Assembly: GCA_011390135.1 (NCBI GenBank)
Contig: JAABSZ010000002.1
Coordinates: 3,039-67,038 of the forward strand
Source: Desulfobacteraceae bacterium
GTDB taxonomy: Bacteria; Desulfobacterota; Desulfobacteria; Desulfobacterales; JAABSP01
Length of the DNA stretch: 64,000 nucleotides
Reading direction: 5' to 3'
The notes under the pieces are model-generated. The model was not told the origin of the DNA. It made no database searches and saw only the letters and a list, made by a program, of their open reading frames with translations. Positions 29,742 through 50,516 of this stretch are shown here, piece after piece. Within the stretch, counting starts at the first letter, position 1; each line of letters begins with the position of its first letter. Position numbers and translations under genes: made by a program.

Positions 29742-31124
29742 ATGAATGTACGGTGCGACAGATGTGAAACATCCTTTGAAATCGATGAAAGCCGGCTGAA
29801 AAAGCTCGATGCAAAGATTCGCTGCTCTGAATGCGGGAACATCTTCAGGGTACGGCCACGGAAAGCCGCACCTGCGGAGTCGGAAAACCCGGATTCAAAT
29901 TTGAAGCCGGCCGGCCGGCAAGCGCTGGCAATAGAAAAGAAGATCCAGAGCTTTCAGGATGAAATGAGCAATGACACCCAGGAAAAGACCGACGACAGGG
30001 GAGAACCCGAAAAAAAGGGCGCGCCCGAAGATGAGAAGGCGGCCTCGGGCCAAGAGCCCCCGATCTTCCGGATCACCAAGGATGAGAACTGCCCCTTGTA
30101 TGGGCTAAAGGATGAATTCCAGCTTGTCGGCAGGATCTTTCGGGTTCCCAGAACCAAGGCCCCCTGTCTGATCCTGGCAAAGGATGTGGTGCGGATTCTG
30201 CACGGCAAGGGGCACAAGGCTTCCGGGGGAAGGGATCCCGCGTTCTACTGCAGCGGCTGCACGGGCCGGATCACCTTCAGATACAAAGAGAAAAAGGAAA
30301 AAAAGGAACTGGCCGATATCCGGCCCGGGACCGACAACTATATCCAGGCCGTGGTGCATCTGCTCAGCGGATTCTCCATCTTCAAGAGTCTGACCGAGGA
30401 CAATATCCGGGACCTGGTCTCCTTTTTGAGGCTTGACAAGTATGAGGAGGGAGACATTATCTTACGCAAGGGGGAACCGGGACGGAGCCTTTTCATCCTT
30501 GTATCGGGACGGGTCGAGGTGGTCAGCGACGACGGCATGTCGATCGCGTTCATGGACAGCGGAGATGTCTTCGGAGAGATGAGCCTTCTGAGCGGGGACC
30601 CGGTGGGCGCGACCATCAAGGTGGTGGAGCCGGTGACGGTGCTATATATCAGCGCTGCCGATTTCAAGAAGATCTTGAATGAGATGCCCATGCTCCAGCT
30701 CAACTTCACCCGGCTGCTGGCCCGCCGGATGGCCGAAATCAATATGGCCCGTTCCGAAGAGTTCGCCTCGGGGATGACGGGAAAGCTTTCAGAGATGCCG
30801 CCGGCCGAGCTTTTCCAGACCCTGAACGTCAACCAGAAGACCGGTGTGCTGACCCTGAAGTTTCTCCGGGATTCCGCCTATCTCTCATTTCGGGAGGGGG
30901 AACTGATCCGGGCCAAATATCGGGAAAGAGATGGGGAGGAGGCTTTTTTCGAGCTGTTGAAGATGAAAGAGGGGCGGTTCAAATTCATTCCGGGGCTCTC
31001 CCCGGAAGAGATGGAGGCGCCGGAGCTGGGCGATTTCATGCATCTTCTGATGGAGGGTCTTAGAAAGATCGACGAAGATGACAAGAACTTCTTGCGGACA
31101 ATGATCCCCAATCTCACCTCCTGA
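29742..31124 (+). CDS. Multidomain protein: MJ0042-type zinc ribbon, Cys-containing linker, cyclic-nucleotide-binding domain, DUF4388 (PATAN-like) domain
   Basis: 460 aa. N-terminus MNVRCDRCETSFEIDESRL..IRCSECGNIFRV. cNMP region GDIILRKGEPGRSLFILVSGRVEVV..GDVFGEMSLLSGDPVGATIKV. C-terminus LSEMPPAELFQTLNVNQKTGVLTL...REGELIRAKY. Confidence 0.75.
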   Translation: MNVRCDRCETSFEIDESRLKKLDAKIRCSECGNIFRVRPRKAAPAESENPDSNLKPAGRQALAIEKKIQSFQDEMSNDTQEKTDDRGEPEKKGAPEDEKAASGQEPPIFRITKDENCPLYGLKDEFQLVGRIFRVPRTKAPCLILAKDVVRILHGKGHKASGGRDPAFYCSGCTGRITFRYKEKKEKKELADIRPGTDNYIQAVVHLLSGFSIFKSLTEDNIRDLVSFLRLDKYEEGDIILRKGEPGRSLFILVSGRVEVVSDDGMSIAFMDSGDVFGEMSLLSGDPVGATIKVVEPVTVLYISAADFKKILNEMPMLQLNFTRLLARRMAEINMARSEEFASGMTGKLSEMPPAELFQTLNVNQKTGVLTLKFLRDSAYLSFREGELIRAKYRERDGEEAFFELLKMKEGRFKFIPGLSPEEMEAPELGDFMHLLMEGLRKIDEDDKNFLRTMIPNLTS

Positions 31125-31290
31125 TCCCTTCTTTGACTCTTTTTCCGCGGTGGGATGCCTTCTTCGGGGATGGATCGTTCAGATTGATTATCGTTTGGGG
31201 TCCGTTTCGGAAAAAAGGGTTGCTCAATATTGGGAAAATCAATTAAATAAGTAGATATGATAAGGGGATGATGAGAACCCCTTTGGCCTT

Positions 31291-33702
31291 ATGGCCGAAT
31301 ACTGTACGGAAGAATCGGAGGGACTTTTGCCGGAATCGAATACCAGGACATCTTTAAATGATGCGGCCGCGCTTCTGATAGGAATGGATGCAGAGGATCT
31401 CTCGGAGCTGTCCCAACTGGAGACCCTTCTACAGGCGGTTTTTGAAGATATGACCATCACCGACAACTGTAGAAGGAGTGTGGACTCGGCCCTGGAAAAG
31501 ATCGGGGCGCTGAAGACCCCTTCTGTCTCCTCTTCCGGGATCGAATCCGAGCTGACGGAGATCGGCAAAGGGATTGAAAATGCTCTGAATGCCCTCGATG
31601 AGGAGGAGAAGGTGGAAGAGCGTTTGGCCCTGGCCTCCGATGACCGCGAAACCGGAACAGATAGAGCCGATACAGCTCTTGAAGCCGAACCCGAACCGGA
31701 GCCGGAAACTGAACCGGAAGCCGAACCGGAAACAGATCGGGAAACAGATCGGGAAACAGAAGTGATTCCCTGGCCCGCTTTCAAACCCAGAGCAGATGAA
31801 AGGGAGCCCAAAGCCGAAGAGTCTGCCTCATCGAACCCCCGGGAGTTTCTGCTGCCCGAATCTACAGATCTGGATATGATGGATGCATTTCTCACCGAAA
31901 GCGCTGACCTGATAGGCGGCGCTGAAGAGGCCCTGCTGACCCTGGAGGAGAATCCGGAGGATATGGATGCGGTCAGTACCGTCTTTCGGGCATTCCATAC
32001 CATCAAGGGAACCTCCGGCTTCCTCGAACTCAAGCCCATCTCCGATCTGGCCCACCGGGCAGAGTCTCTGCTGAGCCAGGTGCGGGACAGGGAGATCCGG
32101 TACGGCGGGGGCTATGCCGATCTTGCACTGCGATCCATCGATCTCTTGAAAGATCTGCTGGCAACGGCCCAGGGGGCGATCAACGGTAAACCCTTTCTGA
32201 TCTTTGAGGAGTATGATGAGTTGATCGGCCTTCTGGATCATCCCGAGGCGGCCGGTTCGGAAACCGCTTCTTCGGAAACACCTTCTTCGGAAACCCCTTC
32301 TCAGGAAACCAGGGAACCGGAGACGGATGCCTCCTCTTCAGAAGAGCCGATGTTCGATGCCGATGCGGCCTTATCCGATAAAGATGCTGGTGAGGAAGAG
32401 AAGGCTTTTGCCCCGTCTTCTCCGATTTCCGACAAAAACAAGAAGGAGGAGGCCGACGAGAAGAAGACGACCTCCCGCGACACCTCCAAAGGGTTTGTGG
32501 AGTCCTCCATCCGGGTTCCGGTGGACCGGCTGGACCGCTTTATCGACATGGTGGGGGAGCTGGTGGTGGCGCATTCCATGGTGGCCCAGGACGAGGTGGT
32601 GACCGATGGGCAGAACCATGAACTCTTGAAAAAGGTCGGCCAGAGCGGAAAGATCGTCCGGGAGCTGCAGGGAATGTCCATGTCCATGCGGATGATCCCC
32701 CTGAAGACCACCTTTCAGAAGATGGCCCGGCTGGTGCGGGATCTCTCGAGAAAGGCCGGTAAGAATATCACCTTTTTCACCGAAGGGGAGGATACGGAGA
32801 TCGACCGGAACATGGTGGACATCATAAATGATCCCCTTGTCCATATGGTACGGAATGCCGTGGATCATGGCATCGAGTCTCCCACGGAACGGGAGCGGGC
32901 CGGCAAGCCGGTCAACGGAACCGTTCAACTGGACGCATACCATTCGGCCGGCAATGTGGTGGTGGAGATCCGGGATGACGGAAAGGGGCTGGACCGGGAG
33001 GGGATCATCGCAAAGGCCGGGGATCGGGGGCTGATCGCGGACCGCGAGGCCCTGACGGACCGGGAGATCTACAACCTGATCTTTGAGCCGGGCTTCTCCA
33101 CGGCCGCGACCATCTCCGAGGTCTCGGGCCGGGGGGTGGGGATGGATGTGGTCAAGACCAACATCGAATCCCTTCGGGGTAGCGTGGAGATCCAGTCCAC
33201 CCCGGGCAGGGGATGCCTTTTCAAGATGAGCCTGCCCTTGACTTTGGCCATCATCGACGGGATGGTGGTCCGGCTGCGGGATCAGAAATATGTGATCCCC
33301 ACGATCTCTATTGTCCGTTCGGTTCAGCCGGAAAAGTCGGATATGAACACTGTCTTTCAACGGGGAGAGATGCTCAAGCTCCAGGGACGGCTCATCCCCC
33401 TCTTCCGTCTGGGGGAGCTTTTCGGCATCGAGGGCGCGGAGACCGACTATACCAAGGCGATCGTGGTGGTGGTGGAAGATGATGACCGGCAGGCCGGGCT
33501 GATGGTGGATGAACTCATCGGCAGCCAGCAGATCGTGATCAAGACCCTTGGGGAGGCGCTCGGTGATATCCCCGGGATTTCCGGCAGTGCGATCATGCCC
33601 AACGGCCGGGTGGGCCTCATCCTCGATGTGGGCGGACTGGTCCGGATGGCCAACGAGAAGAAGAGAGGGGCGGCGCAGAAGCATGAACCTGATGTTGACT
33701 GA
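31291..33702 (+). CDS. cheA: Chemotaxis histidine kinase CheA, with a ~195-aa acidic N-terminal extension if the first ATG is used
   Basis: 803 aa. HPt VFRAFHTIKGTSGFLEL, dimerisation region, HATPase (DPLVHMVRNAVDHGIE, DDGKGLD, SGRGVGMDVV), and a CheW-like P5 domain. The canonical-looking start MMDAFLTES is at 31876. Confidence 0.9.
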   Translation: MAEYCTEESEGLLPESNTRTSLNDAAALLIGMDAEDLSELSQLETLLQAVFEDMTITDNCRRSVDSALEKIGALKTPSVSSSGIESELTEIGKGIENALNALDEEEKVEERLALASDDRETGTDRADTALEAEPEPEPETEPEAEPETDRETDRETEVIPWPAFKPRADEREPKAEESASSNPREFLLPESTDLDMMDAFLTESADLIGGAEEALLTLEENPEDMDAVSTVFRAFHTIKGTSGFLELKPISDLAHRAESLLSQVRDREIRYGGGYADLALRSIDLLKDLLATAQGAINGKPFLIFEEYDELIGLLDHPEAAGSETASSETPSSETPSQETREPETDASSSEEPMFDADAALSDKDAGEEEKAFAPSSPISDKNKKEEADEKKTTSRDTSKGFVESSIRVPVDRLDRFIDMVGELVVAHSMVAQDEVVTDGQNHELLKKVGQSGKIVRELQGMSMSMRMIPLKTTFQKMARLVRDLSRKAGKNITFFTEGEDTEIDRNMVDIINDPLVHMVRNAVDHGIESPTERERAGKPVNGTVQLDAYHSAGNVVVEIRDDGKGLDREGIIAKAGDRGLIADREALTDREIYNLIFEPGFSTAATISEVSGRGVGMDVVKTNIESLRGSVEIQSTPGRGCLFKMSLPLTLAIIDGMVVRLRDQKYVIPTISIVRSVQPEKSDMNTVFQRGEMLKLQGRLIPLFRLGELFGIEGAETDYTKAIVVVVEDDDRQAGLMVDELIGSQQIVIKTLGEALGDIPGISGSAIMPNGRVGLILDVGGLVRMANEKKRGAAQKHEPDVD

Positions 33703-34498
33703 GTTGACGGAGAAGCAGTTCCGGAAGGTGAGCCAACTGGTCCATGACCTGTGCGGTATCTATCTCAAGGAGGGGAAGGAGGCTCTGGTGCGGGCCCGGC
33801 TGATGAAACGGCTGCGCGCTCTGGGCATGGAGAGCTTCGACGCCTATATCAAATTTATTGAAAGCGACAGGGGGGGCGCGGAGCTGGGGATGATGGTCGA
33901 TGTGATCACCACCAACAAGACCAGCTTTTTTCGGGAACCGGCCCATTTCGACTTTCTGCAAAATCAGATCCTGCCCGATATCGTCAGTCATCGGATGCGC
34001 TTCTGGACCGCAGCCTGTTCCTCCGGAGAGGAGCCTTTTTCTCTGGCCATTCTCCTCCGGGAGAACATCCCCGACATCGATCGGAGGGATGTGAAGATCC
34101 TGGCAACCGATATCTCTTCCAGGATGATCGAACGGGCAAAAAGCGGCCTCTATTCCCGGGAGGTGGTCCGGGAGATCCCCCCGGCCTATCTCCAGAAGTA
34201 CTTCTGGAGAGTCAACAGCCCCGGCCCGAAAATATACGAGGTACAGAACAACATCCGTGCCATGGTGCGCTTTGCCCGGCTAAATCTTATGGAACCGTGG
34301 CCCATGAAGGGACCCTTTGACGTGATCTTCTGCCGGAATGTCATGATCTATTTCAACAGGGCCACGCAGCAGCGCTTGATCAATAGATTGTGGGAGTATA
34401 TAGGACCGGGCGGACATCTCTTTGTAGGGCACTCCGAAGGGCTTTCGGCCATCACGCACAAGTTTCATTATGTCCGTCCGGCCATTTACCGAAAATGA
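33683..34498 (+). CDS. cheR: Chemotaxis protein methyltransferase CheR
   Basis: Internal Met chosen (MNLMLTELTEKQFRKVSQLVHDLCGIYL). TNKTSFFREPAHFDFL and RFWTAACSSGEEPFSLA (SAM-binding) motifs. Overlaps the cheA end by 20 nt. Confidence 0.85.
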   Translation: MNLMLTELTEKQFRKVSQLVHDLCGIYLKEGKEALVRARLMKRLRALGMESFDAYIKFIESDRGGAELGMMVDVITTNKTSFFREPAHFDFLQNQILPDIVSHRMRFWTAACSSGEEPFSLAILLRENIPDIDRRDVKILATDISSRMIERAKSGLYSREVVREIPPAYLQKYFWRVNSPGPKIYEVQNNIRAMVRFARLNLMEPWPMKGPFDVIFCRNVMIYFNRATQQRLINRLWEYIGPGGHLFVGHSEGLSAITHKFHYVRPAIYRK

Positions 34499-34523
34499 TA
34501 TTTGAACAGATTACCGGTTTGAA

Positions 34524-34997
34524 ATGAAGCTTGTGGTTTATGTGGGGGATATGAAGGTTGGCGAGAAGGAGGATACTCTGGTAACCCATGCCCTGGGCAG
34601 TTGTCTGGGGCTGATGGTCTATGATCCGGTTATCCGGGTCGGGGGGCTGCTCCATGCGATGCTGCCCCTCTCCAACATCAACCCGGAGAAGGCCCGGGAC
34701 AACCCCTTCATGTTCGTGGACAAGGGCGTTCCCCTTCTCTTCAAGTCCCTTTACAATATGGGTGCCCAGAAATCGAGGATGATTGTAAAAGCTGTGGGGT
34801 GCGGCCGACCTCTGGGCAACGATCAGATGTTTAAAATCGGAGAACGGAATCATACGGTTTTAAAAAAACTCTTATGGAAAAACAACGTGCTGCTGGATGC
34901 CGAGGAAGTCGGCGGAACAGCGAGCCGAACAGTTCATTTCGACCTTTCAACAGGGCAGACGATCATTTCCAGCGGCGGCGTGAAAAGGAAGATCTGA
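34524..34997 (+). CDS. cheD: Chemoreceptor glutamine deamidase CheD with an intact catalytic triad (CheD1)
   Basis: 157 aa. Thr21, Cys27 and His44 lie in VTHALGSCLGLMVYDPVIRVGGLLHAMLP, the same numbering as the Thermotoga CheD triad as I recall it. Confidence 0.85.
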   Translation: MKLVVYVGDMKVGEKEDTLVTHALGSCLGLMVYDPVIRVGGLLHAMLPLSNINPEKARDNPFMFVDKGVPLLFKSLYNMGAQKSRMIVKAVGCGRPLGNDQMFKIGERNHTVLKKLLWKNNVLLDAEEVGGTASRTVHFDLSTGQTIISSGGVKRKI

Positions 34998-35009
34998 CAA
35001 GGAGATGCA

Positions 35010-36482
35010 ATGCATCAGGAGACGGTAGGAAAAAAGATGGGAAAGATCTCGCTGATCATGGTGATCATAGCAATTGCCGTGTCCGCACTCTCCAATCTCG
35101 TCGATTACAATCGGGAAAAGCGGCAGCTCCGGGCCAATTTTCAGGGGACAGTCAAGCCCATTACCGAGCGTCTGGCCAACGGACTGGAGAAACCCCTCTG
35201 GTTTCTGGATGAAAATCAGATCCACAAGCTCATCGAGCAGGAGATGATCGAAAAGACCCTTTTCGGAGTGGTGGTCCGGGAATCGGACGGGAAAACCATC
35301 TTTGCCACCATGCAGCGGGGCAAAAACTGGGAGGATCTGCAACGATCCAAAAAAGAGATCTCCGGTGATTACGTCGCCATGAAAACGCCCGTCCAATACG
35401 GAGACAAGACCATCGGTTCGGTGGAGACCTTCTTCACCGAACGGTTTATGAAAGAGAAGCTCAAGGATCTGCTGATCTTTATGGCCGTCAAAGTGGTGCT
35501 TATGAGCCTTCTGCTGGTTGCCCTCTTTCTGCTGATTGTCCACTGGTTTATCGTCCGTCCTATTGGGGCCGTCTCCCGGGGGCTCGAAGCTGTAGGAGAG
35601 GATGTGAGCGATGCGGTGGGCCGGGTTTCCGTCACCAGCCGGCAGTTGACCGATGGGGCCTCTCAGCAGGCCGCAGCGGTGGAGGAGACCTCCTCCTCGC
35701 TCGAGCAGATGTCCTCGATGATCCGGCAGAATGCCGAAAACCTCCGCCATGCAAACGATTTGATGACAGAGACCGCAAAGGTGGTAGAGGATGCAGCCGC
35801 GTCGATGGTTGAGCTGACCCGCTCTATGGAGAGCATCTCCAATACCGGTGAGGAGAGCAGGAAGGTCATCAAGACGATCGAGGAGATCGCATTTCAGACA
35901 AACCTGCTGGCCCTGAACGCAGCAGTGGAGGCGGCCCGGGCCGGGGAGGTGGGAGCCGGTTTCGCGGTGGTGGCCGATGAGGTGCGGAACCTGGCCATGC
36001 GGTCGAGCCAGGCCGCAAAGAATACCACCGGACTCATCGAGACCTCCATCGAGGGGATCGAAAGCGGGAGAAAGATTGTCTTCAAGGCCAACAGGGCCTT
36101 CGAAAGTGTCCGGGAGGGGTCGGCAAAGGTGGCCTCACTTTTGAATGAGATCACCGCGGCCTCCGCGGAGCAGACCCAGGGGATCAACCAGGTGAGTCAG
36201 GCCATGACCCAGATCGATCAGGTCACCCAGGACAACATGGCCTGCACCGAGGAGGTGGCCGGGGCTCTTGAGGAGATCATCGGGCAGTTGGGAAACATGA
36301 AGTCCCATGTCTCCATGCTGATGGGGCTCATTCGCGGCCGCAATACCGGGGCCGGCTCCGATACTCTCGCGACAGATGATGAATGGAACCGGGAATCGCT
36401 TCTCTCTGGCGATGACCCTGCCGGGAAGGGGTGGGAGAAGCGGTCGAACCGGGCCCTGACGGGAACCGCATCGGGAGATTGA
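35010..36482 (+). CDS. Methyl-accepting chemotaxis protein (two TM helices, small periplasmic domain)
   Basis: 490 aa. [41 protein letters not shown]. Confidence 0.9.
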
Positions 36483-36483
36483 A

Positions 36484-37329
36484 ATGAAGAAGAATGATCG
36501 TTGGGAAGAGATCAAAGCCGAGGCCGAGCGGTTCTGCAGCAGCAGATTGAAGTCCCATGGACTCCCGCTCGACCCTGAAACCATCGATGCCGGTGCAGTG
36601 GAGAGGATGGCCGATCCGGAGCTTGAGCGGGCAATTTTAGAGCTTTCCAACTGGAGCTATTTCAACAGGGAGAATGTTATCGACTCGTTGGCCGAAGCTG
36701 AAAAGCGACAGGGACCCCGTCCTTTTTTTGAGATCTGCCTGGGCGCATCCCTGCGGAAGCTGATGAACCGGCCCGTGCCGGGCTATCATCTGGAAGCCGG
36801 GGAACTCTGGTCTCATGGCATCGGTGTGGCGGTGGCCGCGGAGGAGATCGGGAGAATCGCGGGCCGGAAGGAGAATGAGATCGGATTTATGGCCGGGCTT
36901 CTCCACGACGTGGGGAAGCTGGTGCTGGGGGATTATGTCGAGAGGTATCTGGAAAAGATCCGGAGCATGACCCAAAACGGCCTCTCTTTTGAGATCGCGG
37001 AGCAGCGGGTGCTGGGGGGGGACCATACGCAACTGGGAGAGCATATGCTGCGCTGCTGGGGATTTTCCGGGGAGATTCTCCGGGCCGTCCGCTGGAGCCA
37101 TGATCCGGATGGGGCCGAGCCGGTAAGCCAGGCCGCGGATATTCTCCATGTGGCCAATGTCCTCTGCCTGAGCATCGGCATCGGCGTGGGACAGGAGGGA
37201 TTGCATTACAAAAGCTCCCCTGCGGCCCTGAACCGGCTGAAGGTGACCACAAGACACCTTGAACTGGTGGCAAGCCATACGCTACAATGGATCAAGGATC
37301 TGCCCGAACTCGTGAGGGCTTCACCGTAA
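36484..37329 (+). CDS. HDOD-domain protein
   Basis: 281 aa. GLLHDVGKLVLG and ...DHTQLGEHMLRCWGF... patterns typical of HDOD. Starts 1 nt after the MCP stop. Confidence 0.75.
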   Translation: MKKNDRWEEIKAEAERFCSSRLKSHGLPLDPETIDAGAVERMADPELERAILELSNWSYFNRENVIDSLAEAEKRQGPRPFFEICLGASLRKLMNRPVPGYHLEAGELWSHGIGVAVAAEEIGRIAGRKENEIGFMAGLLHDVGKLVLGDYVERYLEKIRSMTQNGLSFEIAEQRVLGGDHTQLGEHMLRCWGFSGEILRAVRWSHDPDGAEPVSQAADILHVANVLCLSIGIGVGQEGLHYKSSPAALNRLKVTTRHLELVASHTLQWIKDLPELVRASP

Positions 37330-37367
37330 TTTTTTTTGTTCATCTATGAAAAGAGGTCTTTAATCGC

Positions 37368-37742
37368 ATGGACATTCTTATCGTCGACGACAGTGCGGTT
37401 ATGCGGGCGATGATATTGAAATCATTTCGCATGACGGGCTTAGAGATCGGGGATGTATTTGAGGCTGAAAACGGGCAGAAGGGGCTTGCGCAGTTGTCCT
37501 CGCATTCGGTGGACCTGGTGGTCGCGGACATCAATATGCCGGTGATGGATGGCGTGGAGATGATCCGCCGGATGAAGGCAGCCGATGAGACCGCTTCGAT
37601 ACCGATTCTGGTCATCTCCACAGAGGGCAGCGAGACCCGATGGAAACAATTGGAAGAGATGGGGGCCGCGTTTATACAGAAGCCCTTTTCACCGGAAAAG
37701 ATACGGGATACCATACAAACGATCATGGGGAGGAAATCATGA
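37368..37742 (+). CDS. cheY: CheY-like single-domain response regulator (CheY1)
   Basis: 124 aa. ILIVDDSAVMR...DLVVADINMPVMDG...ISTEG...KPF. Confidence 0.85.
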   Translation: MDILIVDDSAVMRAMILKSFRMTGLEIGDVFEAENGQKGLAQLSSHSVDLVVADINMPVMDGVEMIRRMKAADETASIPILVISTEGSETRWKQLEEMGAAFIQKPFSPEKIRDTIQTIMGRKS

Positions 37743-38233
37743 CGGATCAGATCAAGGAGACGATCTATGAGGTGACGGAGGATGTGCTGGAACGGCTCGC
37801 ATTCATGTTCTCCTTCAGAGAAGAGGAGCGGGGGGATATGAACTATTCGGACGCAATGATTGCCAGCGTCACCTTTGGCGGCGACTTCGAGGGGCGCCTC
37901 TTTCTGGCGGTCTCCCCGGACATTCTGCCGGAACTGGCCGGCAATATGCTCGGCATCGATGAGGAGACCACCCAGGATCAGCAGCAGGATGCCTTGAAGG
38001 AGCTGATCAACGTGGTCTGCGGAAATCTTCTGCCACGGCTCTCCGGAAAGCGGATCGTCTTCAATGTCAATGCGCCCCAGATCGTCTCCCCGGATGAGAT
38101 CGAAGCAGAGAAACAAGAGGGGCCTCCCCTTTCCGTCACCCGGCTCTCTATTGAAGAGGGCACATGCGATCTGATATTCTTTACGGACGGCGAGATCCCT
38201 CAGGACGGGAAGGCTGCATCGGGCGGCGAGTAG
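37739..38233 (+). CDS. CheX/CheC-family CheY-P phosphatase-like protein
   Basis: Start chosen at MTDQIKETIYE (ATGA overlap with the cheY1 stop). Contains DALKELIN, i.e. D-x3-E-x2-N, with a Pro 22 residues after the Asn. The CheC/CheX/FliY active-site consensus is D/S-x3-E-x2-N-x22-P. Confidence 0.65.
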   Translation: MTDQIKETIYEVTEDVLERLAFMFSFREEERGDMNYSDAMIASVTFGGDFEGRLFLAVSPDILPELAGNMLGIDEETTQDQQQDALKELINVVCGNLLPRLSGKRIVFNVNAPQIVSPDEIEAEKQEGPPLSVTRLSIEEGTCDLIFFTDGEIPQDGKAASGGE

Positions 38234-38307
38234 ATCGATGGCCCGGGCCGGCGCCTGCCTGCAGGAAGGAGCGCTTCATCAATTTTCTGTCGGAGTAGAA
38301 GGGATCC

Positions 38308-38760
38308 ATGAAACATATTGTTTTAGTCGGAAATCTGAAGGTTGGAAAAGAGGGGGATACCATCGTAACCTATGCCCTGGGAACCAGTCTGGGGCTTGTG
38401 GCCTATGATCCTGTGGCAAAGATCGGCGGGATGCTGCACGCCATGCTGCCCCTGTCCAAATCCGACCCGAAAAAGGCGGAAGCCAACCCCTGCATCTTTG
38501 TGGATACGGGGGTTCCAAAGCTGCTGGAAGAGGTCTACAATCAGGGCGGCGAGAAAACGAGACTGATCGTCAAGGCTACCGGCTGCTCCCGGCCCGAAGG
38601 CGATAACGAGATGTTCAAGATCGGGGAGAAAAACTATGCGGTGCTCAAAAAGATTCTCTGGAAAAATAATATTCTTCTCGAATTCGAGGATGTCGGCGGC
38701 TCAACCAATCGAACAGTGCAATTCAATCTCTCCACAGGCGAGATCAAAATTACGAGCTGA
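38308..38760 (+). CDS. CheD paralog with catalytic Cys27 replaced by Ser (CheD2)
   Basis: 150 aa and a close paralog of CheD1. VTYALGTSLGLVAYDPVAKIGGMLHAMLP. Codon 38386..38388 is AGT (Ser) where CheD1 has TGT (Cys). Confidence 0.8.
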   Translation: MKHIVLVGNLKVGKEGDTIVTYALGTSLGLVAYDPVAKIGGMLHAMLPLSKSDPKKAEANPCIFVDTGVPKLLEEVYNQGGEKTRLIVKATGCSRPEGDNEMFKIGEKNYAVLKKILWKNNILLEFEDVGGSTNRTVQFNLSTGEIKITS

Positions 38761-38807
38761 TTTTTACCGATATCTTACAAATATGAAGGGTGATAAGAGG
38801 TTATTCG

Positions 38808-39182
38808 ATGGCAATCAATGTCCTTATTGTAGATGACAGTGCGGTAATGCGGGCGATGATCCTCAAGTCGATGCGCATGAGCGGTCTGGAGATCGGCGAG
38901 GTGCTTCAGGCCGGCAACGGCCAGGAAGGGCTTGATACCCTCGGCGAGAACTGGGTGGATCTGGTGGTGGTCGATATCAACATGCCGGTGATGACCGGCG
39001 AGGAGATGATCGACCGCATGCGCTCGGACCCGGGATTCTCCGATCTACCCATTGTGGTCATCTCCACCGAGGGAAGCGAATCCCGGCTGAAACGTCTGCA
39101 AGAAAAGGGCGCGGCATTCATACACAAACCCTTTACGCCCGAGGCGATCAGGGATACCATCAAGACGCTCATGAACCTGTAA
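38808..39182 (+). CDS. cheY: CheY-like single-domain response regulator (CheY2, paralog of CheY1)
   Basis: [21 protein letters not shown]...DLVVVDINMPVMTG...ISTEGSE...KPF. The upstream ATG at 38790 is less likely. Confidence 0.85.
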   Translation: MAINVLIVDDSAVMRAMILKSMRMSGLEIGEVLQAGNGQEGLDTLGENWVDLVVVDINMPVMTGEEMIDRMRSDPGFSDLPIVVISTEGSESRLKRLQEKGAAFIHKPFTPEAIRDTIKTLMNL

Positions 39183-39226
39183 CGGGGCCGAAGCGATCCG
39201 ATGAAAGAGACCATGAAAGAGATTAA

Positions 39227-40806
<1,580 letters not shown>

Positions 40807-40884
40807 CCCGAAGCCTGTCCTGGCTTATCTCATATGCCTTTTGGAACATAATAAGATCCATCTTTTTTCCGGCTATTTTCCTTT

Positions 40885-42564
40885 TTAAAAATCCTTGAAA
40901 TCATCATCATCCAGAGGGATGATCTCATTGGGGGAGACCTCCCTTCGGGCCGGTGCCGGCGCTCTCTTTTCAGCCTTCTGTTCCCTGGGTTTATAGGGCG
41001 GGGGAGCTGGTTTTGATTTCGAAGAACGCTTTTGCGCTCTCTGGGGCCGGGACCGCTCCGGCATCGGTGTTCGCTTCTGCTCCTTCTTGCCCACCAGGTG
41101 GGTCAGATCCTCCACAAAATCCTTCATCTTTTCGGCCTGGCCCCGCATCTGCTGGGATGCGGATGCGGACTGCTGAGCGTTGGCCGCATTCTTCTGGGTC
41201 ACTTTGTCCATCTCGGCCACGGAAGTATTGACCTGCTCGATGCCCTGGGCCTGTTCGTCTGATGCGGCCGCTATCTCGCCGATGAGGTCGCTGATCTTGT
41301 CGGAACTCTGGGTCACCTCGGCAAAGACCGAGTTGGTCTGTCCCACCAGCTCTCCGCCATCCTTGATCTTCTTCACCGTGATCTCGATGAGGCCGGCCGT
41401 GTTCCGGGCCGCGTCTCCTGCCCGCATGGCAAGATTCCTCACCTCGTCGGCCACCACCGCAAATCCGGCCCCGGCCTCCCCGGCCCGGGCCGCCTCCACC
41501 GCGGCGTTCAAGGCCAGCAGATTGGTCTGAAACGCTATCTCGTCGATGGTCTTGATGATCTTGAAGGTCTCCTCGCTCGATTTGACAATGTCGTCCATGG
41601 ATGCCGTCAACTGGTTCATGGAATCGTTGGCGCTCTGGATCGAGGTCTTTCCGGCCTTCATCAGGTGGTTGGCCTGCTTCGCGTTGTCCGCGTTCTGGCG
41701 GGTCATGGAGGACATCTCTTCCAGAGATGAGGAGGTCTGCTGAATGGCCCCGGCCTGCTCCGAGGCATCTTCGGCCAGAGACTGGCTTGCGGCCGCCACC
41801 TCCTGCGCACCTCCGATGATCTGCTCCGCGCTCTCGGTGAGCATCCGTATGCTTCGGCCCAGGGTGCCGCGGAGGCGGTTGACATAGATAACGAAAAGCC
41901 CTCCACCGATGACAAAGAGGATTCCGATGGCGATAAACATGACCTCAATTTCCTCGAGGCGTTCCGTATAAAGATCTTCCTTGCTGCCGCCGATCCCCAC
42001 CATCCAGTCCCAGGGCCCGAAGTAGGACTGGTAGGCCAAAAATGTTTCCACAGGCTTGCCCGGATTCTGCCAGACATCCTCGACGATCCTGTCGGCAATC
42101 TGCCGGTTTGCCCAGGTATCCTGAATCGTATATTTCCCTTGGGTCTGAACATTCCAGGCGTTTTTCCCCTCCAGAGAGGGATGCATCGCCAGGACACCCC
42201 GCTCGTCCCCCTGGGTTTTCACTGCCCAGGCAAAGGTCTTGCTGTTCATGGACATCCGACTTCCAGCTATATCCCGGACCCCGTTCTCTCGCATTGGACC
42301 CAGCACATAGGTCTTCACGGTCTCCTGCGCCTGCTCCAGGGTCAGATTTCCGGCCTTGACCTCTTCGTTCATGGCCTCCATGAAGCCGATCATATTGCTG
42401 TTGATGTTTTTGAACATGGTCCCGCCGAGATCGATGATCTCGGTCTTCGATTTCCAGTATGCGTAGTAGAAGGTGCAGACGAGAACAATGCACACCAGCA
42501 CCAGAATCGGTGTAAAGAACCGCAGTTTCATCCCTTTTGACTTACGCTCTTCCATAAGGTTCAT
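40885..42564 (-). CDS. Methyl-accepting chemotaxis protein with a Cache-like periplasmic domain and a long basic tail
   Basis: 559 aa. TM1 ~15-37. Periplasmic ~160 aa with Cache-like features ([25 protein letters not shown]). [41 protein letters not shown]. Confidence 0.9.
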
Positions 42565-42572
42565 CGCTCCTG

Positions 42573-43085
42573 TCAGCTTGTGCTTTCCAGCAGGTTGATC
42601 TCTTCGGATTTGAGGATTCTGTCGATATCGAGCAGAATCTTCACGCCCCCCTCCATCTTGGCCATCCCAAGTATATAGTCAGTCTCGAGACGGCTGCCAA
42701 AGGCCGGGGAATCTTCGATATCATCGGCCTTGATGTTGAGTACCTCCGAGACCGTATCCACCACGATGCCGATCATGACATTTCCGCTCTCCCCCGGGAT
42801 TTCCACCACGATGATGCAGGTACGATCCGTATACTCCTCGGCCTCGAGGCCGAACCGGAGCCGCAGATCGATCACCGGGATCACCTTTCCCCGCAGGTTG
42901 ATCACCCCCTTGACAAACTGAGGGGTTCTGGGAACCGGCGTGATGGGCATCATACCTATGATCTCCTTGATCTTCAATATCCCGATGCCGTACTCCTCCC
43001 CGGCCAGGGTGAAGGTGAGATATTTCCCCTCCCGCTCTCCCATCGCCTTGATCGCCTGATCCATGGTCTCCGTCATTCGTTTCAT
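42573..43085 (-). CDS. cheW: Chemotaxis coupling protein CheW
   Basis: 170 aa. [22 protein letters not shown]...[22 protein letters not shown]. Confidence 0.9.
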
Positions 43086-43160
43086 CTTCCGTTCCTCCTT
43101 GCCGTAATTCCCGAATCGTTATGTTGATCCTATTTTTGAATAAAATGAATTTTGCCGGCA

Positions 43161-43526
43161 CTATCCGAGTACTTTTCTGACCACCGCCAGAAGCTGTTCC
43201 GGCTTGAAAGGCTTGACGATCCAGCCGGTCGCCCCCGCGGCCTTTCCCTCCTGCTTTTTCTGCTGCTGGGATTCGGTGGTCAGCATGACAATGGGGACGA
43301 ATCGATACGCCTGCATGGCGCGAACCTTTCGGATCAGCTCGATGCCGTCCATTTCCGGCATATTGAGATCGGTGAGGAGCATATTTACAGATGTTTTCTC
43401 CAGCTTGTTCAACGCCTCCTGGCCGTCCCCAGCCTCGACGACATCATAGCCCGCCCCGGTAAGGGTGAAACGGACCATCTGCCGGACACTCGCGGAATCG
43501 TCTACGGTCATGATGACTTTTGCCAT
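43161..43526 (-). CDS. cheY: CheY response regulator (CheY3)
   Basis: 121 aa. VIMTVDDSASVRQ...MLLTDLNMPEMDG...LTTES...KPF. Confidence 0.85.
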   Translation of the reverse strand: MAKVIMTVDDSASVRQMVRFTLTGAGYDVVEAGDGQEALNKLEKTSVNMLLTDLNMPEMDGIELIRKVRAMQAYRFVPIVMLTTESQQQKKQEGKAAGATGWIVKPFKPEQLLAVVRKVLG

Positions 43527-43541
43527 GCATCTGCCTCTTTT

Positions 43542-45365
43542 CTAAAATAGTTCCACATTGTCCCCGAACCCCTCTTTCTCCTCATTATCCGGCTTCTGAC
43601 CCGGTTTGTGACCCGGCGGCTGCAAATCATCCTGAGGATCGGGGAGAGCCCGCGTCGAATGGCCGCCCACAAGACGCTCGTGTACTCCCCGTTCCTGATT
43701 CATGGTATACCGATCTGCCAGTTTCCGGGTTTCTTCCGAGGAGATGTTGAAATTCGCCTTTGGCTTCCGTTTTCCGATGATCTTTTTCAACTTCTCCAGC
43801 CGATCGATCTCCCCGAGCATTTCATGGGAGAGCGATTTAAGGAAAGCGAGTCCGGAGAGGACATCTTCAATGGTGGACTTCAGCACCTGGGCCCGGTGCA
43901 GTGTTTCATCGGAATTTCGGATAAATCGATCATAAATATCTGTCAATTGGAAAAGTCCTCTCTCCGACACGCCGGCCTCCTGCTCCGCTTCGGCTTGGCC
44001 CACATCCGCAGTCATCTTCCCGGCCAGTTCCGAGACCTCGTTGAGAATATCTTTCACCGTATCCACAAAGCGGCCCGTCTGTTGGGAGATGTGTGTCACC
44101 TCCTGGGCCAGTATTTCCAGGGTGCGGCCTGTCTCTCCGAGATGGGCCGCCTTGATGATGGCATTCAAGGAGAGAAAGTGGGTCTGAAAGCCGATATTCT
44201 CCACCTGTTCCATATGGCCGGTGAGGCGCCGGTTGATTTCGGCCGCGGCCAGCGCGGTGCTTCGGACCCGTTCCGTTGCGGATCGGGCCTGATGCCGAAG
44301 TTCCTTTAAATTCTTCAGATCTCTTTGAAGGGCCTCAAAGGGTTTCTGGTTTTGATCGTTGCTCAATTCCGAAAGGCTCTGGGTAAGTCCGTCGATCTCA
44401 TGGTGGATGGCGTTGAAGGCCTGTTGGGTCCTCTGATAGACCCCGTCGATCTCCTCCCGGGTCTGCCCGATCTGCCCCTGCTGCAGTTCAATGATGGCCA
44501 GAACCGTTGCATATCGGCCCTTGCCCATTCTGCAGAGGGCTTCCACATCTTCCAGGGCATGGAGAATATGTTCCACCCGCTGATTCATGCTGTCATGGAG
44601 CTGCATGCCCACCACCACCTCGCCCACCTGCCGGCGGATCTCCCGTCCGTGGGTATTGGCCTGCTCCATAGCGGATATGGACCAGGCGATCAGTTTGCGC
44701 GCGTCCTGGGCAGAGGTCTCAACGGTCTGCTGACCCTCTCGGGTCAGCCCTTTGATGCGGCCGGCCTCCTCTGTCACCTCCTGAAAGATCTCCTCCTGCT
44801 CCCGCCCTGTTTTTCGGGCATCCTCCCGAATCTGCTTTGTCAGCCGGGAGATCTCCTGGGAAAGATGGCCGATCTGCTGGGAGACCACGCCAAAAAGGGC
44901 TTCTGAGGATTCAGAGCCTGCGCTCTCCACCCGAATCCCGAAACCGATTCCCTTTAACGAGACCGAGATCTTCTCTACGGTCTTACAGGAGTGCTGAAGC
45001 CGGCTCAGGTCATCGATCAGAAGAGAGATCTGCTCCAGCCGGAGGCTCACCTCGTGATGACGGCTGTCGAGGTCGCAAAGCGCCACCTTGACCATTTCGT
45101 TCATTCGATCCAGAAGGCTCTCCCCTCCATCGCTGCTGATGGAGCCGATCGTTTCCAGGATCTTCCCGGCAATGGCGCCGCCCTCGTTAGATACCGATTC
45201 CAGTGCATTCCCGATATCCATAAAGGGGGATTCGGAATCCCGGCAGATCCGCTGCAGAGATTTTCGGCAGCAAAGGATCTCTTCGGCAACCTTTCTGCAG
45301 TCCCTCTGGAAGGGGTTTGACAATAGACGATTCGAAATTGCTGCCATGATCTCTTTTATGCGCAT
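43542..45365 (-). CDS. Soluble (no TM) MCP-like coiled-coil protein with a divergent chemoreceptor tip motif
   Basis: Start chosen at MRIKEIMAAIS (TGATG overlap with the upstream HD-GYP stop). ENIGFQTHFLSLNAIIKAAHLGETGRTLEILAQEV resembles the canonical [33 protein letters not shown]. I see no hydrophobic TM segment. Confidence 0.65.
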   Translation of the reverse strand: MRIKEIMAAISNRLLSNPFQRDCRKVAEEILCCRKSLQRICRDSESPFMDIGNALESVSNEGGAIAGKILETIGSISSDGGESLLDRMNEMVKVALCDLDSRHHEVSLRLEQISLLIDDLSRLQHSCKTVEKISVSLKGIGFGIRVESAGSESSEALFGVVSQQIGHLSQEISRLTKQIREDARKTGREQEEIFQEVTEEAGRIKGLTREGQQTVETSAQDARKLIAWSISAMEQANTHGREIRRQVGEVVVGMQLHDSMNQRVEHILHALEDVEALCRMGKGRYATVLAIIELQQGQIGQTREEIDGVYQRTQQAFNAIHHEIDGLTQSLSELSNDQNQKPFEALQRDLKNLKELRHQARSATERVRSTALAAAEINRRLTGHMEQVENIGFQTHFLSLNAIIKAAHLGETGRTLEILAQEVTHISQQTGRFVDTVKDILNEVSELAGKMTADVGQAEAEQEAGVSERGLFQLTDIYDRFIRNSDETLHRAQVLKSTIEDVLSGLAFLKSLSHEMLGEIDRLEKLKKIIGKRKPKANFNISSEETRKLADRYTMNQERGVHERLVGGHSTRALPDPQDDLQPPGHKPGQKPDNEEKEGFGDNVELF

Positions 45366-46498
45366 CAGCAGAAGGACAGTACCCCCCCCTCCCGTTCGCT
45401 CCATTGGAACGGTTTGTTGTTTTTGATCGGACAGGACGGATTCATCTTCTGCAGGATACAGATCACTTTTTCCTGATCACTGAAAAAGGCGTCCACCACC
45501 GCAGGATCAAACTGCTTCCCGCGGCTCTGCCGGATAATGTCAAAGGCGACCTCGGCAGGGTAGGGCTCCTTGTAGGGGCGGGCCGAGGTGAGGGCATCAA
45601 AGACATCCGCGATCCCCACGATCCGTCCGGTGATGGGAATCTCCTCCTTTGCAAGCCCCCGGGGATATCCCCTGCCGTCCCACCGTTCATGGTGGGAGCC
45701 TGCGATCTGGTGGGCATACTGGAGGATCTCCGCACTCGAGTCGGCCAGAATGTTTTCACCGATGGTGGTATGGCTTTTGATGACTTCAAACTCCTCGGCC
45801 GTCAACCTTCCCGGTTTTAGCAGGATCTTGTCCGGAATGCCGATCTTTCCCACATCGTGCATGGGAGAGGCATACCGGATGTTTTCGATCCTGTTTTGGG
45901 GCAGCTCCAGATTCATCGCGATCAACTCGCAGTAGCTGCTGATCCTGCTGATATGCTCGCCGGTCTCCTCATCTTTGTATTCCGCGGCAATGGCCAGCCG
46001 TTTAATGGTATCGAGATACGCGTCATGTACCGCCTCATGGGCATCCTGCAGCTCGGACATGCTTTCCAGAAGCTGTCGATGGATCCGCATCCGTTCCACA
46101 AGAAGATTCCGCTCCTTGAGCACCCGTTTGAGACGCACCATCAGTTCCTTGTTCCGGAAGGGTTTACCGATGAAATCGCTGGCCCCGAGCTGGATGATCT
46201 TCTCATAGGTGAAGTCCTCGATAAAACCTGTCATGACGATCACATCGGCCTCATGCTTCTCCTTGACCTCCCTGAGCAGTTCGATGCCGCTGATACCGGG
46301 CATTTTAATGTCTGTGACCACCACATCCACCCTCTCCTTTTTCAGAATTTCCAGAGCACGGGTTCCGTTCTCCGCGATGGAGCAATTATATCCGGCATAC
46401 CCGATGGCCTCCTGAAGCATCTCCCGGATCACCTCTTCGTCATCCACCACCAGGATATAGATTTCCTCCGGTATCAGTTCCGGCGCGGGATCGATCAT
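45365..46498 (-). CDS. Response regulator with HD-GYP domain (putative c-di-GMP phosphodiesterase)
   Basis: Start chosen at MIDPAPELIPEEIYILVVDDEE (AGGAGAG RBS upstream). REC DVVVTDIKMPGISG...KPF. HD-GYP motifs MHDVGKIGIPD, HHERWDGRGYPRGL. Confidence 0.85.
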   Translation of the reverse strand: MIDPAPELIPEEIYILVVDDEEVIREMLQEAIGYAGYNCSIAENGTRALEILKKERVDVVVTDIKMPGISGIELLREVKEKHEADVIVMTGFIEDFTYEKIIQLGASDFIGKPFRNKELMVRLKRVLKERNLLVERMRIHRQLLESMSELQDAHEAVHDAYLDTIKRLAIAAEYKDEETGEHISRISSYCELIAMNLELPQNRIENIRYASPMHDVGKIGIPDKILLKPGRLTAEEFEVIKSHTTIGENILADSSAEILQYAHQIAGSHHERWDGRGYPRGLAKEEIPITGRIVGIADVFDALTSARPYKEPYPAEVAFDIIRQSRGKQFDPAVVDAFFSDQEKVICILQKMNPSCPIKNNKPFQWSEREGGVLSFC

Positions 46499-46760: not shown

Positions 46761-47243
46761 ATGAAAAGGAAAATGCTGCTGTTTACCGCGGCCATCGTCG
46801 GCATTGCCTTTTTGTGCGCGGCCGGGATCTATGCCGGGACAACCGTTCCCGACGTGGTCAAGATGCAGAACAAGGCCTATGAGAAGCATGACAAGGGCAT
46901 TGTGGAGTTCACCCACAAAAAACATGTCGAGGATTATGCCAAGGCCAATCCCGAACTCTACAAAAACGGGTGCGGCGCATGCCATCACGACGCGGAGGGC
47001 AAACCCCTGACCGGCCTGAAGATGGGCGAGAATGTGCAAAACTGCATCGAATGCCATAAAAAGCCGGGGGAGAAACCCAAGGGCAAGGATGCGCCGAAAC
47101 TATCCGACAAGGAGGCCAGGGAGTATCACGCGGAGGCGCTTCACGACAACTGCCGGGACTGCCATAAGGATTTCAATAAGAAGAACAACACGAAAGCCGC
47201 TCCGACAACCTGCTCCAAGTGTCATCCCAAGGAGAAGAAGTAG
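46761..47243 (+). CDS. Periplasmic tetraheme cytochrome c3 (class III)
   Basis: 160 aa with a signal peptide. Four CxxCH motifs (CGACHH, CIECHK, CRDCHK, CSKCHP) plus VEFTHKKH distal-His pattern. Strong RBS AAAGGAGGTG at 46741..46750. Confidence 0.85.
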   Translation: MKRKMLLFTAAIVGIAFLCAAGIYAGTTVPDVVKMQNKAYEKHDKGIVEFTHKKHVEDYAKANPELYKNGCGACHHDAEGKPLTGLKMGENVQNCIECHKKPGEKPKGKDAPKLSDKEAREYHAEALHDNCRDCHKDFNKKNNTKAAPTTCSKCHPKEKK

Positions 47244-49021: not shown

Positions 49022-49261
49022 TTAGTCTTCGTGCTCCGTGTGCGCCTGCTTACCGGTGCCCTTGAGGCCGTACATGGAGGTGGAACCGGATGACCAGTAC
49101 TCCAGGGTTCCGTCTTCCACCATCTTGTTGATGAGCTTTTTGGCATCTCTGGGTTTGGTTTCGATGATCTTTGCCAGGTCAGAGAAGTAGAACTTTGATT
49201 TTGACTTCTGCTTTTTGGTCAGCTCATCGAAAATCCTCTGTCTTGCTTCTTCGTATTCCAT
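49022..49261 (-). CDS. dsrD: DsrD (small winged-helix protein of the dissimilatory sulfite reductase operon)
   Basis: 79 aa. KSKFYFSDLAKI...AKKLINKMVEDGTLEYWSSGSTSMYGLKG. Sits immediately downstream of dsrB. Confidence 0.85.
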   Translation of the reverse strand: MEYEEARQRIFDELTKKQKSKSKFYFSDLAKIIETKPRDAKKLINKMVEDGTLEYWSSGSTSMYGLKGTGKQAHTEHED

Positions 49262-49292
49262 ATTTCAACTCCTTTTTATCCGGATCTACCGG

Positions 49293-49339
49293 AAAAGCCG
49301 GAAGGCGGGAGAAACAGTGCAGCCTCTCCTCCTTCCGGC
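49293..49339 (-). promoter_or_regulatory. Stem-loop with a U-run in the dsrB-dsrD intergenic region (possible attenuator or partial terminator)
   Basis: mRNA sense: GCCGGAAGG, 25 nt, CCUUCCGGC, then UUUUCC. A perfect 9-bp stem read from the sequence. Confidence 0.4.
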
Positions 49340-49352
49340 GGATGTACTGCTA

Positions 49353-50501: not shown

Positions 50502-50516
50502 GGTTTTTCTCCCTCC

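Follow-up and report, generated by a model that had tools for sequence, protein, structure and literature searches.

Introduction

Chemosensory control of cyclic di-GMP (c-di-GMP) has been experimentally established for its synthesis, in the Wsp system (PMC8846402), as well as for an EAL enzyme tethered in Pseudomonas (PMC3861689), and a review of c-di-GMP sensing lists only the alternative cellular function (ACF, Wsp) and type IV pili (Tfp) classes of chemosensory systems as c-di-GMP modulators (PMC8846402). No description of a CheA-linked HD-GYP protein was found in the literature searched. Here, we analyzed a 64-kb stretch of contig JAABSZ010000002.1 (64,000 nt, called the window below) from an uncultured Desulfobacteraceae-like sulfate reducer, with dsrABD genes adjoining the locus of interest. 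This locus, at positions 29742–46498, consists of two convergent operons with che genes, and the minus-strand operon starts with the gene of a receiver (REC)-HD-GYP response regulator. An earlier note made from the sequence had read both operons as one Che-like pathway. The comparison with relatives suggests that the locus is composite: it combines a flagellar-type operon on the plus strand, a CheW and a Cache-domain methyl-accepting chemotaxis protein (MCP) supplied by the minus strand, and a conserved cassette encoding the HD-GYP protein, an MCP-like receptor and CheY3, which may serve as a c-di-GMP modulator of motility. The locus is assembled from known kinds of parts in a new variant.

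In the Wsp system of Pseudomonas, which belongs to the ACF class, the CheA-like kinase WspE phosphorylates the REC-GGDEF protein WspR. The locus shares with Wsp the presence of a receiver-domain c-di-GMP enzyme among che genes, which is conserved there in all eight assemblies whose HD-GYP is at least 61% identical, and chemosensory control of this enzyme is possible. On the other hand, the enzyme is predicted to degrade c-di-GMP rather than make it, CheA has no fused REC domain, the neighboring che operon is of the flagellar type, with the CheY phosphatase CheX and with flagellar linkage in relatives, and outside the che-linked clade members of the enzyme family adjoin classical kinases. Because the kinase is not a hybrid and a phosphatase gene is present, the locus does not belong to the Wsp/ACF type. 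The analogy in logic to Wsp, which the earlier note had drawn, is thus not sustained by the non-hybrid CheA, nor by the REC-HD-GYP family, whose members stand beside classical kinases in loci L085, L089, and L003 and in six of the eight che-linked members (L numbers designate the fetched loci).

In gene content, the plus-strand operon resembles flagellar chemotaxis operons with CheD/CheX-type accessories and the "group alpha" che clusters of Geobacter, in which a free-standing HD protein is encoded (Tran et al. 2008, PMC2577667). The G. sulfurreducens alpha cluster was the only major che cluster with a recognizable sigma-28 site (PMC2577667), a hint that agrees with the flagellar linkage described below. 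The shared genes encode CheA, CheR, CheB, CheD, CheX, single-domain CheYs, and an HD-family protein within the operon. The differences from group alpha, and from CheD/CheX flagellar operons, are that cheW is missing from the operon, that there are three CheDs, two of which lack the catalytic cysteine, and that the CheD–CheY pair is duplicated. Additionally, group alpha has been reported only in Geobacteraceae and without mcp genes (PMC2577667), while the plus-strand operon has an MCP gene.

Three other systems resemble the minus-strand genes. The Pch (DipA) protein of P. aeruginosa is a c-di-GMP phosphodiesterase tied to the flagellar chemotaxis array via CheA, where it tunes motility (PMC3861689), which is similar to the role that may be considered for the HD-GYP protein; however, Pch is an EAL protein that lacks a receiver domain and whose gene lies outside the che operon, while the REC-HD-GYP protein is encoded together with a receptor, CheY, and CheW. 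The DosM receptor of the Vibrio cholerae F9 cytoplasmic array shares with the MCP-like receptor its architecture, because both appear to be soluble, with two tandem hairpins and no sensor domain (PMC7534058, PMC9321776). The hybrids described as "partial F9 plus another F class" also have a partial che set beside a complete system of another class (PMC7534058, PMC9321776). In contrast to DosM and F9, there is no triple CheW in the locus, and the gene order DosM-CheW3-CheB-CheR-CheY-CheA (PMC9321776 supplement) was not found; the hairpin tips are strongly diverged, and the receptor gene is coupled to the HD-GYP gene. The missing triple CheW and the different gene order exclude the locus from F9. 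Finally, the REC-HD-GYP architecture is shared with RpfC/RpfG pairs, and homologs outside the clade, as well as several inside it, adjoin a kinase, mostly a hybrid one, whereas here there is no adjacent kinase, and the HD-GYP gene heads a chemosensory operon.

Results and Discussion

The plus-strand operon is most likely a flagellar-type chemotaxis system

The gene content of the window was determined from a six-frame listing of open reading frames (ORFs) and Pfam scans, which recovered all 17 genes that the earlier note had listed in the two operons, at the same positions and with the same domain content. The comparison with the 91% relative L082 showed that the true starts of CheR, CheX, and CheY2 are located inside their longest ORFs. 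CheB was used to seed a metagenome scan for relatives of the plus-strand operon, and all window proteins were then compared with the collected loci by tblastn. The core order CheA-CheR-CheD-HDOD-CheY-CheX-CheB-(CheD3) recurred in the metagenomic loci L090, L094, L099–L101, L105, and L106, of which L090 is the closest relative (64% identity in the CheA core and 67% in CheB). In L090 (7426–13741) the genes of FlgK, FlgL, and one small ORF are placed between CheB and the CheD3 that lacks the catalytic cysteine, while MotB, MotA, and a PilZN-PilZ (YcgR-like) gene follow downstream from CheD3. FlgK and FlgL genes are also located directly upstream of a plus-type operon in L105, and FlgL is next to CheB in L097. 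The core set of flagellar chemotaxis proteins is present in the window, including CheA with the P1, P3, P4, and P5 domains, CheW, MCP, and single-domain CheY, with CheW and a second MCP encoded on the convergent operon. The interleaving or adjacency of flgK/flgL, motAB, and the YcgR-like PilZ gene in the closest relatives suggests that the plus-strand operon is most likely a flagellar-type chemotaxis system. The type was judged by gene neighborhood and by the heptad length of the receptors. The earlier note had taken the lack of flagellar genes as a hint that the locus controls c-di-GMP rather than, or in addition to, motility; a reading without motility is not supported, given the flgK-flgL, motAB, and YcgR-like genes in or beside the closest relatives, a flagellar linkage of the kind that the same note had named in advance as counting against its reading. 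Its use of the HDOD protein as a sign of a c-di-GMP pathway is also not supported, as HDOD has no demonstrated c-di-GMP role and is a part of the flagellar-type operon. As a side observation, a c-di-GMP effector of the YcgR type adjoins this type of che operon in L090.

No HD-GYP domain was found in the other fetched plus-type operons. Weak tblastn matches of the HD-GYP protein to several HDOD-type che operons (L099, L101, L108, and others) were rejected, because they cover the receiver domain only, and hence they do not indicate any general link between HD-GYP and the HDOD-type operon.

The genes of the plus-strand operon were then compared to their counterparts in relatives, with the domain assignments coming from Pfam. 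CheA (31291–33702) contains Hpt (P1, aa 195–291), H-kinase_dim (P3), HATPase_c (P4), and CheW-like P5 domains, without a P2 or REC domain. Its core is 64% identical to CheA of L090, 47%–53% to CheAs of other HDOD-type operons, and 42%–45% to CheAs of the 34-heptad (34H) type. The Hpt domain is preceded by about 190 residues (31291–31870), including an acidic low-complexity EPEPEPETEPEAEPE-type repeat, and this N-terminal stretch is not conserved in L090. The translation from the first ATG had no exact counterpart in the protein collection; the start codon is uncertain, and the annotated start is probably different. The following genes encode the CheR methyltransferase (33683–34498), 56% identical to CheR of L090, CheD1 (34524–34997), 65% identical to its L090 counterpart, and an MCP with two transmembrane segments (35010–36482), which could be aligned without gaps to E. 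coli Tsr over 209 aa, as expected for the 36-heptad (36H) length. Next is the stand-alone HDOD/HD protein (36484–37329), which has the same operon position in L090, L094, L099–L101, L105, and L106. The single-domain receiver CheY1 (37368–37742) is 67% identical to CheY2 (38808–39182), whose gene in L082 codes for 124 aa, and between them are CheX (37739–38233), a CheY-P phosphatase with the DxxxExxN motif that corresponds to a 164-aa gene in L082, and CheD2 (38308–38760). The REC-methylesterase CheB (39236–40300), 67% identical to that of L090, and the divergent CheD-like protein CheD3 (40297–40806), 59% identical to its L090 ortholog (L090 10239–10751), complete the operon, which is entirely on the plus strand.

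The alignment of CheD1 and CheD3 to T. maritima CheD (2F9Z) showed that CheD1, with its GSC motif, keeps the catalytic cysteine and histidine (Cys27 and His44 in T. maritima numbering), while in CheD3 the cysteine is replaced by glycine (GSG for GSC). In CheD2, a paralog 60% identical to CheD1, it is replaced by serine (GTS for GSC). The catalytic histidine is present in all three proteins. In the CheD3 subfamily, the cysteine is changed to glycine or alanine in at least five loci (the window, L082, L090, L103, and L108), while nearly all other CheDs among about 60 fetched loci retain it, as does CheD1. The substitutions suggest that CheD2 and CheD3 are probably regulatory, non-deamidase CheD-like paralogs of this operon type.

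A gene located 166 nt upstream of cheA (29742–31124, plus strand) encodes a protein with a Zn-ribbon, cNMP_binding, and DUF4388 (PATAN) domains. No counterpart of it precedes CheA in L090, and its membership in the system is uncertain.

CheW and the Cache-MCP of the minus strand match the class of the plus-strand system

The last two genes of the minus-strand operon code for a single-domain CheW of 170 aa (42573–43085) and an sCache_2 MCP with two transmembrane segments (40885–42564). The Pfam scan of the whole 64-kb window found a separate CheW gene only on the minus strand, where it is the sole one, and CheA only on the plus strand, in agreement with the earlier note; this division does not necessarily extend to the genome, because the window also contains an MCP of the 34H class (541–3201), as described below. 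CheW is 81%–97% identical to the CheWs found with the cassette in relatives, and 54%–65% identical to CheWs in more distant HDOD/CheX-type operons (L106, L108, L111–L114, L117, and L133). Its identity to CheWs of other che operon types is mostly 39%–49%, with one value of 32%, including 39%–43% for the 34H-type operons located beside the cassette. The signaling arm of the Cache-MCP is equal in residue count to that of the plus-strand MCP, and the two receptors are 46% identical over 309 aa, with near-identical hairpin tips. These similarities place CheW and the Cache-MCP in the class of the plus-strand system. No cheW gene was found in the 17.4 kb of the L090 contig examined, which is the same situation as in the plus-strand operon of the window. 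Because the receptors have the 36H length and CheW is 54%–65% identical to CheWs of such operons, the dependence of the plus-strand operon on this CheW is plausible. Hence, the functional interdependence of the two operons, as proposed earlier, is plausible for the part of the minus-strand operon that encodes CheW and the Cache-MCP.

The HD-GYP, MCP-like, and CheY3 genes are a cassette associated with different che operons

The distribution of the remaining minus-strand genes was surveyed using a protein search with the HD-GYP protein, a genome scan, and context look-ups. These genes encode the REC-HD-GYP protein (45365–46498), the MCP-like receptor (43542–45365), and a canonical single-domain CheY, which is CheY3 (43161–43526, Pfam). 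HD-GYP proteins with at least 61% identity were found in eight assemblies (the window, L082, L002, L086, L087, L088, L084, and L173), and in all eight the gene order was HD-GYP, MCP-like, CheY, an extra REC or CheB in some of them, and CheW. Synteny of the HD-GYP gene with che genes in relatives, the lack of which the earlier note had listed among the grounds against its reading, is thus confirmed in each of these assemblies. The overlap of the HD-GYP stop codon with the next start codon (TGATG) was also verified; the junction of the HD-GYP and receptor genes is an overlap or a gap of at most 6 nt in six loci, and a gap of about 155 nt in L086. On the other hand, che genes were absent from the surroundings of the HD-GYP homologs with 48%–59% identity. 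A PAS hybrid kinase is directly upstream of the homolog in L085 (Desulfosalsimonas propionicica), L089, and L003 (56%–59%), and the homologs in L004–L008 (48%–55%) also have no che genes around them. From this conserved order, the HD-GYP, MCP-like, and CheY3 genes appear as a cassette that is inherited as a unit.

The convergent layout with the plus-strand operon was identical in the 91% relative L082, and only there. In L002 and L086–L088 the cassette comes last in a cluster of genes with one direction, after CheA(670 aa)-[MCP]-CheW-CheR-CheD-CheB-hybrid kinase-REC, where the che operon is of the 34H type, while in L084 and L173 the cassette is located downstream from a PAS/GAF histidine kinase. 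The che operon upstream of the cassette in relatives is not orthologous to the plus-strand operon, as the identity is 42%–45% for the CheA core and 39%–43% for CheW. The CheY3 protein shares 70%–79% identity with the CheY encoded ahead of CheA in the L170–L172 operons, and 33%–38% with CheY1 and CheY2. These comparisons identify the locus as a mosaic of three parts, and the claim that it is a single system is not supported, in view of the attachment of the cassette to a non-orthologous che operon in relatives and the closer similarity of CheY3 to CheY of another system. In more general terms, neighboring che operons may combine components of different origin, which matters for the automated assignment of pathways.

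The window also contains a trace of this other system. The 4HB-HAMP MCP at 541–3201 (plus strand, Pfam), which is located outside both operons, has a symmetric deletion of 7 + 7 residues relative to Tsr, which places it in the 34H class, and it is 51%–58% identical to MCPs inside the second-system operons. Its C-terminal DFEKY sequence fits the pentapeptide rule for 34H receptors (PMC2577667). The presence in the window of a 34H MCP of the type linked to the cassette in relatives makes it very probable that a second chemosensory system is encoded in the genome.

The REC-HD-GYP protein is a predicted phosphodiesterase

To characterize the first protein of the minus-strand operon, its two domains were compared with known enzymes and with homologs. 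The Pfam scores were 132.8 bits for PF13487 and 103 bits for PF00072, and both signature motifs, HD and HHExxDGxGYP, are preserved. The HD-GYP domain matched the active enzyme PmGH (4MCW) with an E-value of 2e-54 over 205 residues, covering the full domain with the motifs aligned, and the cGAMP-specific HD-GYP protein 5Z7C was also matched. Hence, the protein is a predicted phosphodiesterase for c-di-GMP or a related cyclic dinucleotide. The phospho-acceptor residues of the receiver, comprising the acidic pocket, phospho-Asp, Thr, and Lys, are complete (DD, TDIKMP, MTG, and KPF).

The two domains differ in their conservation. The HD-GYP domain is 61%–66% identical to all homologs examined, while for the receiver the identity is 68%–78% among the che-linked members that were examined, with 62% in P0012/L173, and 53%–57% outside them. 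The alpha-1 signature of the receiver is DDE[ED]xIR[ED]MLQE in the che-linked clade versus DDExPITEM outside it. The divergence of the receiver together with the alpha-1 change would fit a shift in phosphodonor specificity at the formation of the cassette, at the base of the clade. The adjacent kinases also vary between subclades: it is an HDFNN-type kinase related to the ancestral partner in L084 and L173, an unrelated hybrid kinase in L086–L088, and none in the window and L082, where no kinase was found within 10 kb on either side of the HD-GYP gene. The partners of the HD-GYP gene inside the cassette remain constant across the subclades while these kinases vary. Phosphotransfer from CheA to the HD-GYP receiver may occur. 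The sequence evidence is ambiguous, and the phosphodonor is about as likely to be a CheA, either that of the plus strand or another one of the same genome, as it is to be a classical kinase encoded elsewhere.

Among the kinases outside the two operons, the PAS-HisKA-HATPase-REC hybrid kinase at 56594–58300 (minus strand, Pfam) was the best match in the window to the kinases directly upstream of the HD-GYP homologs (38%–39% over the full length). It was considered as a displaced cognate kinase, but its dimerization and histidine phosphotransfer (DHp) helix is unlike that of both kinase groups, which makes it a weak candidate. Two further kinases, with HAMP-PAS-HisKA-HATPase-REC-Hpt and REC-HisKA-HATPase domains, are located at 8008–12371 on the plus strand, in the ORFs 8008–11142 and 11181–12371.

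The MCP-like protein has two signaling hairpins

The MCP-like protein is a soluble receptor of 607 aa, in which no transmembrane or hydrophobic segment and no recognizable sensor domain were found. A weak Pfam MCPsignal match covered its C-terminal half, while the family alignment revealed that the N-terminal half has a tip motif of its own in degenerate form, LRVVGFNIRVESARS...FGVVSQQI. The N-terminal halves of homologs matched MCPsignal on their own (36.5, 26.6, and 20.6 bits), and the hhalign comparison of the N-terminal with the C-terminal half gave an E-value of 8e-5 over 215 columns with the tips in register. An AlphaFold2 (AF2) model was all-helical, with a predicted local distance difference test (pLDDT) score of 76 and hairpin turns at residues 149–151 and 409. 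From the alignments and the model, the protein is assigned as a soluble receptor with two tandem signaling hairpins, in a DosM-like architecture.

Several other features of the receptor family were observed. The conserved C-terminal GDNVELF tail, which was seen in the window protein and the homologs P0122–P0128 and is present in up to four copies in longer homologs, contains an NVELF sequence that resembles CheR/CheB-tethering pentapeptides. There are also two invariant motifs, QxHDSMxQRxxH and RYTMxxERxxH. The distant homologs of the receptor in L170/L171 and L172 head operons with the order receptor-STAS-CheY-CheA-(MCP-CheW / CheR). A sigma-54-type response regulator is placed upstream, the L170 cluster includes a ParA/MipZ-like ATPase, and an HDOD protein is encoded upstream in L172.

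Possible roles of the cassette

The gene arrangement makes it plausible that chemosensing is linked to the breakdown of c-di-GMP. In the mechanism that we consider probable, the receptors of the 36H length would activate CheA through CheW, and CheA would phosphorylate CheY1 and CheY2, which serve as the motor output, as well as CheB. The receptors would be adapted by CheR, CheB, and CheD1, and CheX would remove CheY-P, while the HDOD protein and the two CheD paralogs lacking the catalytic cysteine would be conserved accessory parts. CheW and the second receptor of the same class would be supplied by the last two genes of the convergent operon. The two-headed receptor, translationally coupled to the HD-GYP gene, could build or join a cytoplasmic CheW/CheA array, and phosphorylation of the HD-GYP receiver would switch the hydrolysis of c-di-GMP. 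A local drop in c-di-GMP would then relieve PilZ/YcgR-type braking of the flagellar motor, so that the HD-GYP protein would be a slower second output or a modulator of motility and not its replacement.

Several observations weigh against this mechanism. The scan of the 64-kb window with Pfam found no flagellar gene and no PilZ gene, and the flagellar assignment depends on relatives with 41%–64% identical CheA. By phylogeny, CheY3 and the two-headed receptor appear to belong to another che system, which together with the 34H receptor of that system in the window indicates that there is likely a second CheA elsewhere in the genome, which is possibly the real partner of the cassette. The HD-GYP receiver is nearer to receivers of the OmpR/NtrC/Spo0F type than to CheY; six of the eight che-linked members still have a histidine kinase gene ahead of the HD-GYP gene, either adjoining it or one gene away, as do all three outside-clade homologs with a readable upstream context. 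As to the receptor, the N-terminal half of the window protein itself had no significant Pfam match, so that the two-hairpin assignment leans on the homologs, and a fold search of the AF2 model against the PDB gave no match at an E-value of 0.001 or better, with chemoreceptor hairpins matched only weakly. Lastly, promoter and terminator scans were not decisive on the operon structure, as no sigma-28 or sigma-54 promoters were found at the thresholds used upstream of the PATAN gene, cheA, the HD-GYP gene, and cheW, and a generic sigma-70 and terminator scan was not usefully above background.

An alternative is that the HD-GYP protein is an ordinary response regulator with its cognate kinase elsewhere in the genome, the operon position reflecting co-regulation or history, and with a possible effect on motility via global c-di-GMP, which we regard as a serious possibility that falls short of probable. 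It would be consistent with the general response-regulator type of the receiver, with the PAS hybrid kinases directly upstream of the homologs in L085, L089, and L003 and the likewise che-free homologs of L004–L008, and with the kinases near the cassette in relatives, which are of the HDFNN lineage in L084/L173, and another hybrid kinase plus REC directly upstream in L002 and L086–L088. The window itself carries three hybrid or REC-kinases. However, the HD-GYP, receptor, CheY, and CheW genes have stayed together through at least three upstream contexts, which are two unrelated kinase families and none, the stop/start overlap of the HD-GYP and receptor genes is conserved, and the candidate kinase at 56594–58300 differs from the ancestral partners in the DHp helix. 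A strong form of the reading in the earlier note takes both operons as one Che-like pathway with c-di-GMP degradation as its main output, in which the plus-strand CheA directly phosphorylates the HD-GYP receiver, by the Wsp scheme with a degrading enzyme, and the CheYs are sinks or side branches. In its favor, the HD-GYP gene is accompanied by CheY, CheW, and receptor genes throughout the clade, the kinase gene is no longer in the operon in the lineage of the window and L082, CheW of the cassette belongs to the plus-operon class, and the alpha-1 signature of the receiver shifts at the base of the che-linked clade; also, CheA has no P2 docking domain, from which we infer that it might have a broader substrate range. 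We still consider it unlikely that this is the main output, as operons of the plus type lie among flagellar genes in relatives and encode CheX together with two CheYs, the other fetched plus-type operons have no HD-GYP gene and their weak matches are to REC only, the cassette is located beside a different CheA in four of seven relatives (L002 and L086–L088), with CheY3 grouping with that system, and CheA is not a hybrid kinase, unlike WspE.

The unlikeliest of the explanations weighed here reverses the direction of the signal, with the HD-GYP protein as an input or partner of the two-headed receptor, so that the array would read c-di-GMP or HD-GYP phosphorylation by contact and relay it to CheA and the CheYs. 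The HD-GYP and receptor genes are a tightly coupled pair in most members examined, and in the receptor only two hairpins and conserved motifs, with no recognizable sensor domain, were seen, which is similar to DosM homologs, which also have no sensor domains and need other inputs (PMC9321776). On the other hand, no known c-di-GMP-binding motif was identified in the receptor, and the reading comes purely from the gene order. A more far-reaching proposal, that the cassette, conserved in Desulfobacteraceae-like bacteria, forms a cytoplasmic array with c-di-GMP degradation as a direct CheA-phosphorylated output, plugged here into the flagellar CheA/CheW, seems to us somewhat doubtful and is advanced tentatively. 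If true, a chemosensory pathway with a phosphodiesterase output would be seen for the first time, and the arrays of receptors with double signaling domains, whose role in Vibrio is still unknown, would gain a function. The occurrence of the cassette across at least eight genomes makes it a testable lead to the purpose of cytoplasmic double-layer arrays, and the cassette also bears on the coordination of chemotaxis with c-di-GMP motor braking in anaerobic sulfate reducers.

Genes surrounding the locus

Beyond the HD-GYP gene, the order of genes is cytochrome c3, CobB/CobQ-like amidase, and dsrD-dsrB-dsrA. The cytochrome, a multiheme cytochrome c of class III, and the amidase adjoin the HD-GYP gene and are located at 46761–47243 (plus strand) and 47403–48953 (minus strand), and dsrA, dsrB, and dsrD are at 49022–51833 (minus strand). 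The same order of dsr, amidase, and cytochrome genes was observed in the 91% relative L082. A long plus-strand ORF at 49215–51860 had no Pfam match and is wholly antisense to dsrB and dsrA, and it is probably no gene. The cydAB genes are at 53453–55841. On the other side of the locus, mnmE, jag, yidC, and yidD are consecutive at 20049–24945 (minus strand), a set which is usually found near the chromosomal replication origin, and an RND efflux operon is located upstream of this row in window coordinates, at 12583–18473.

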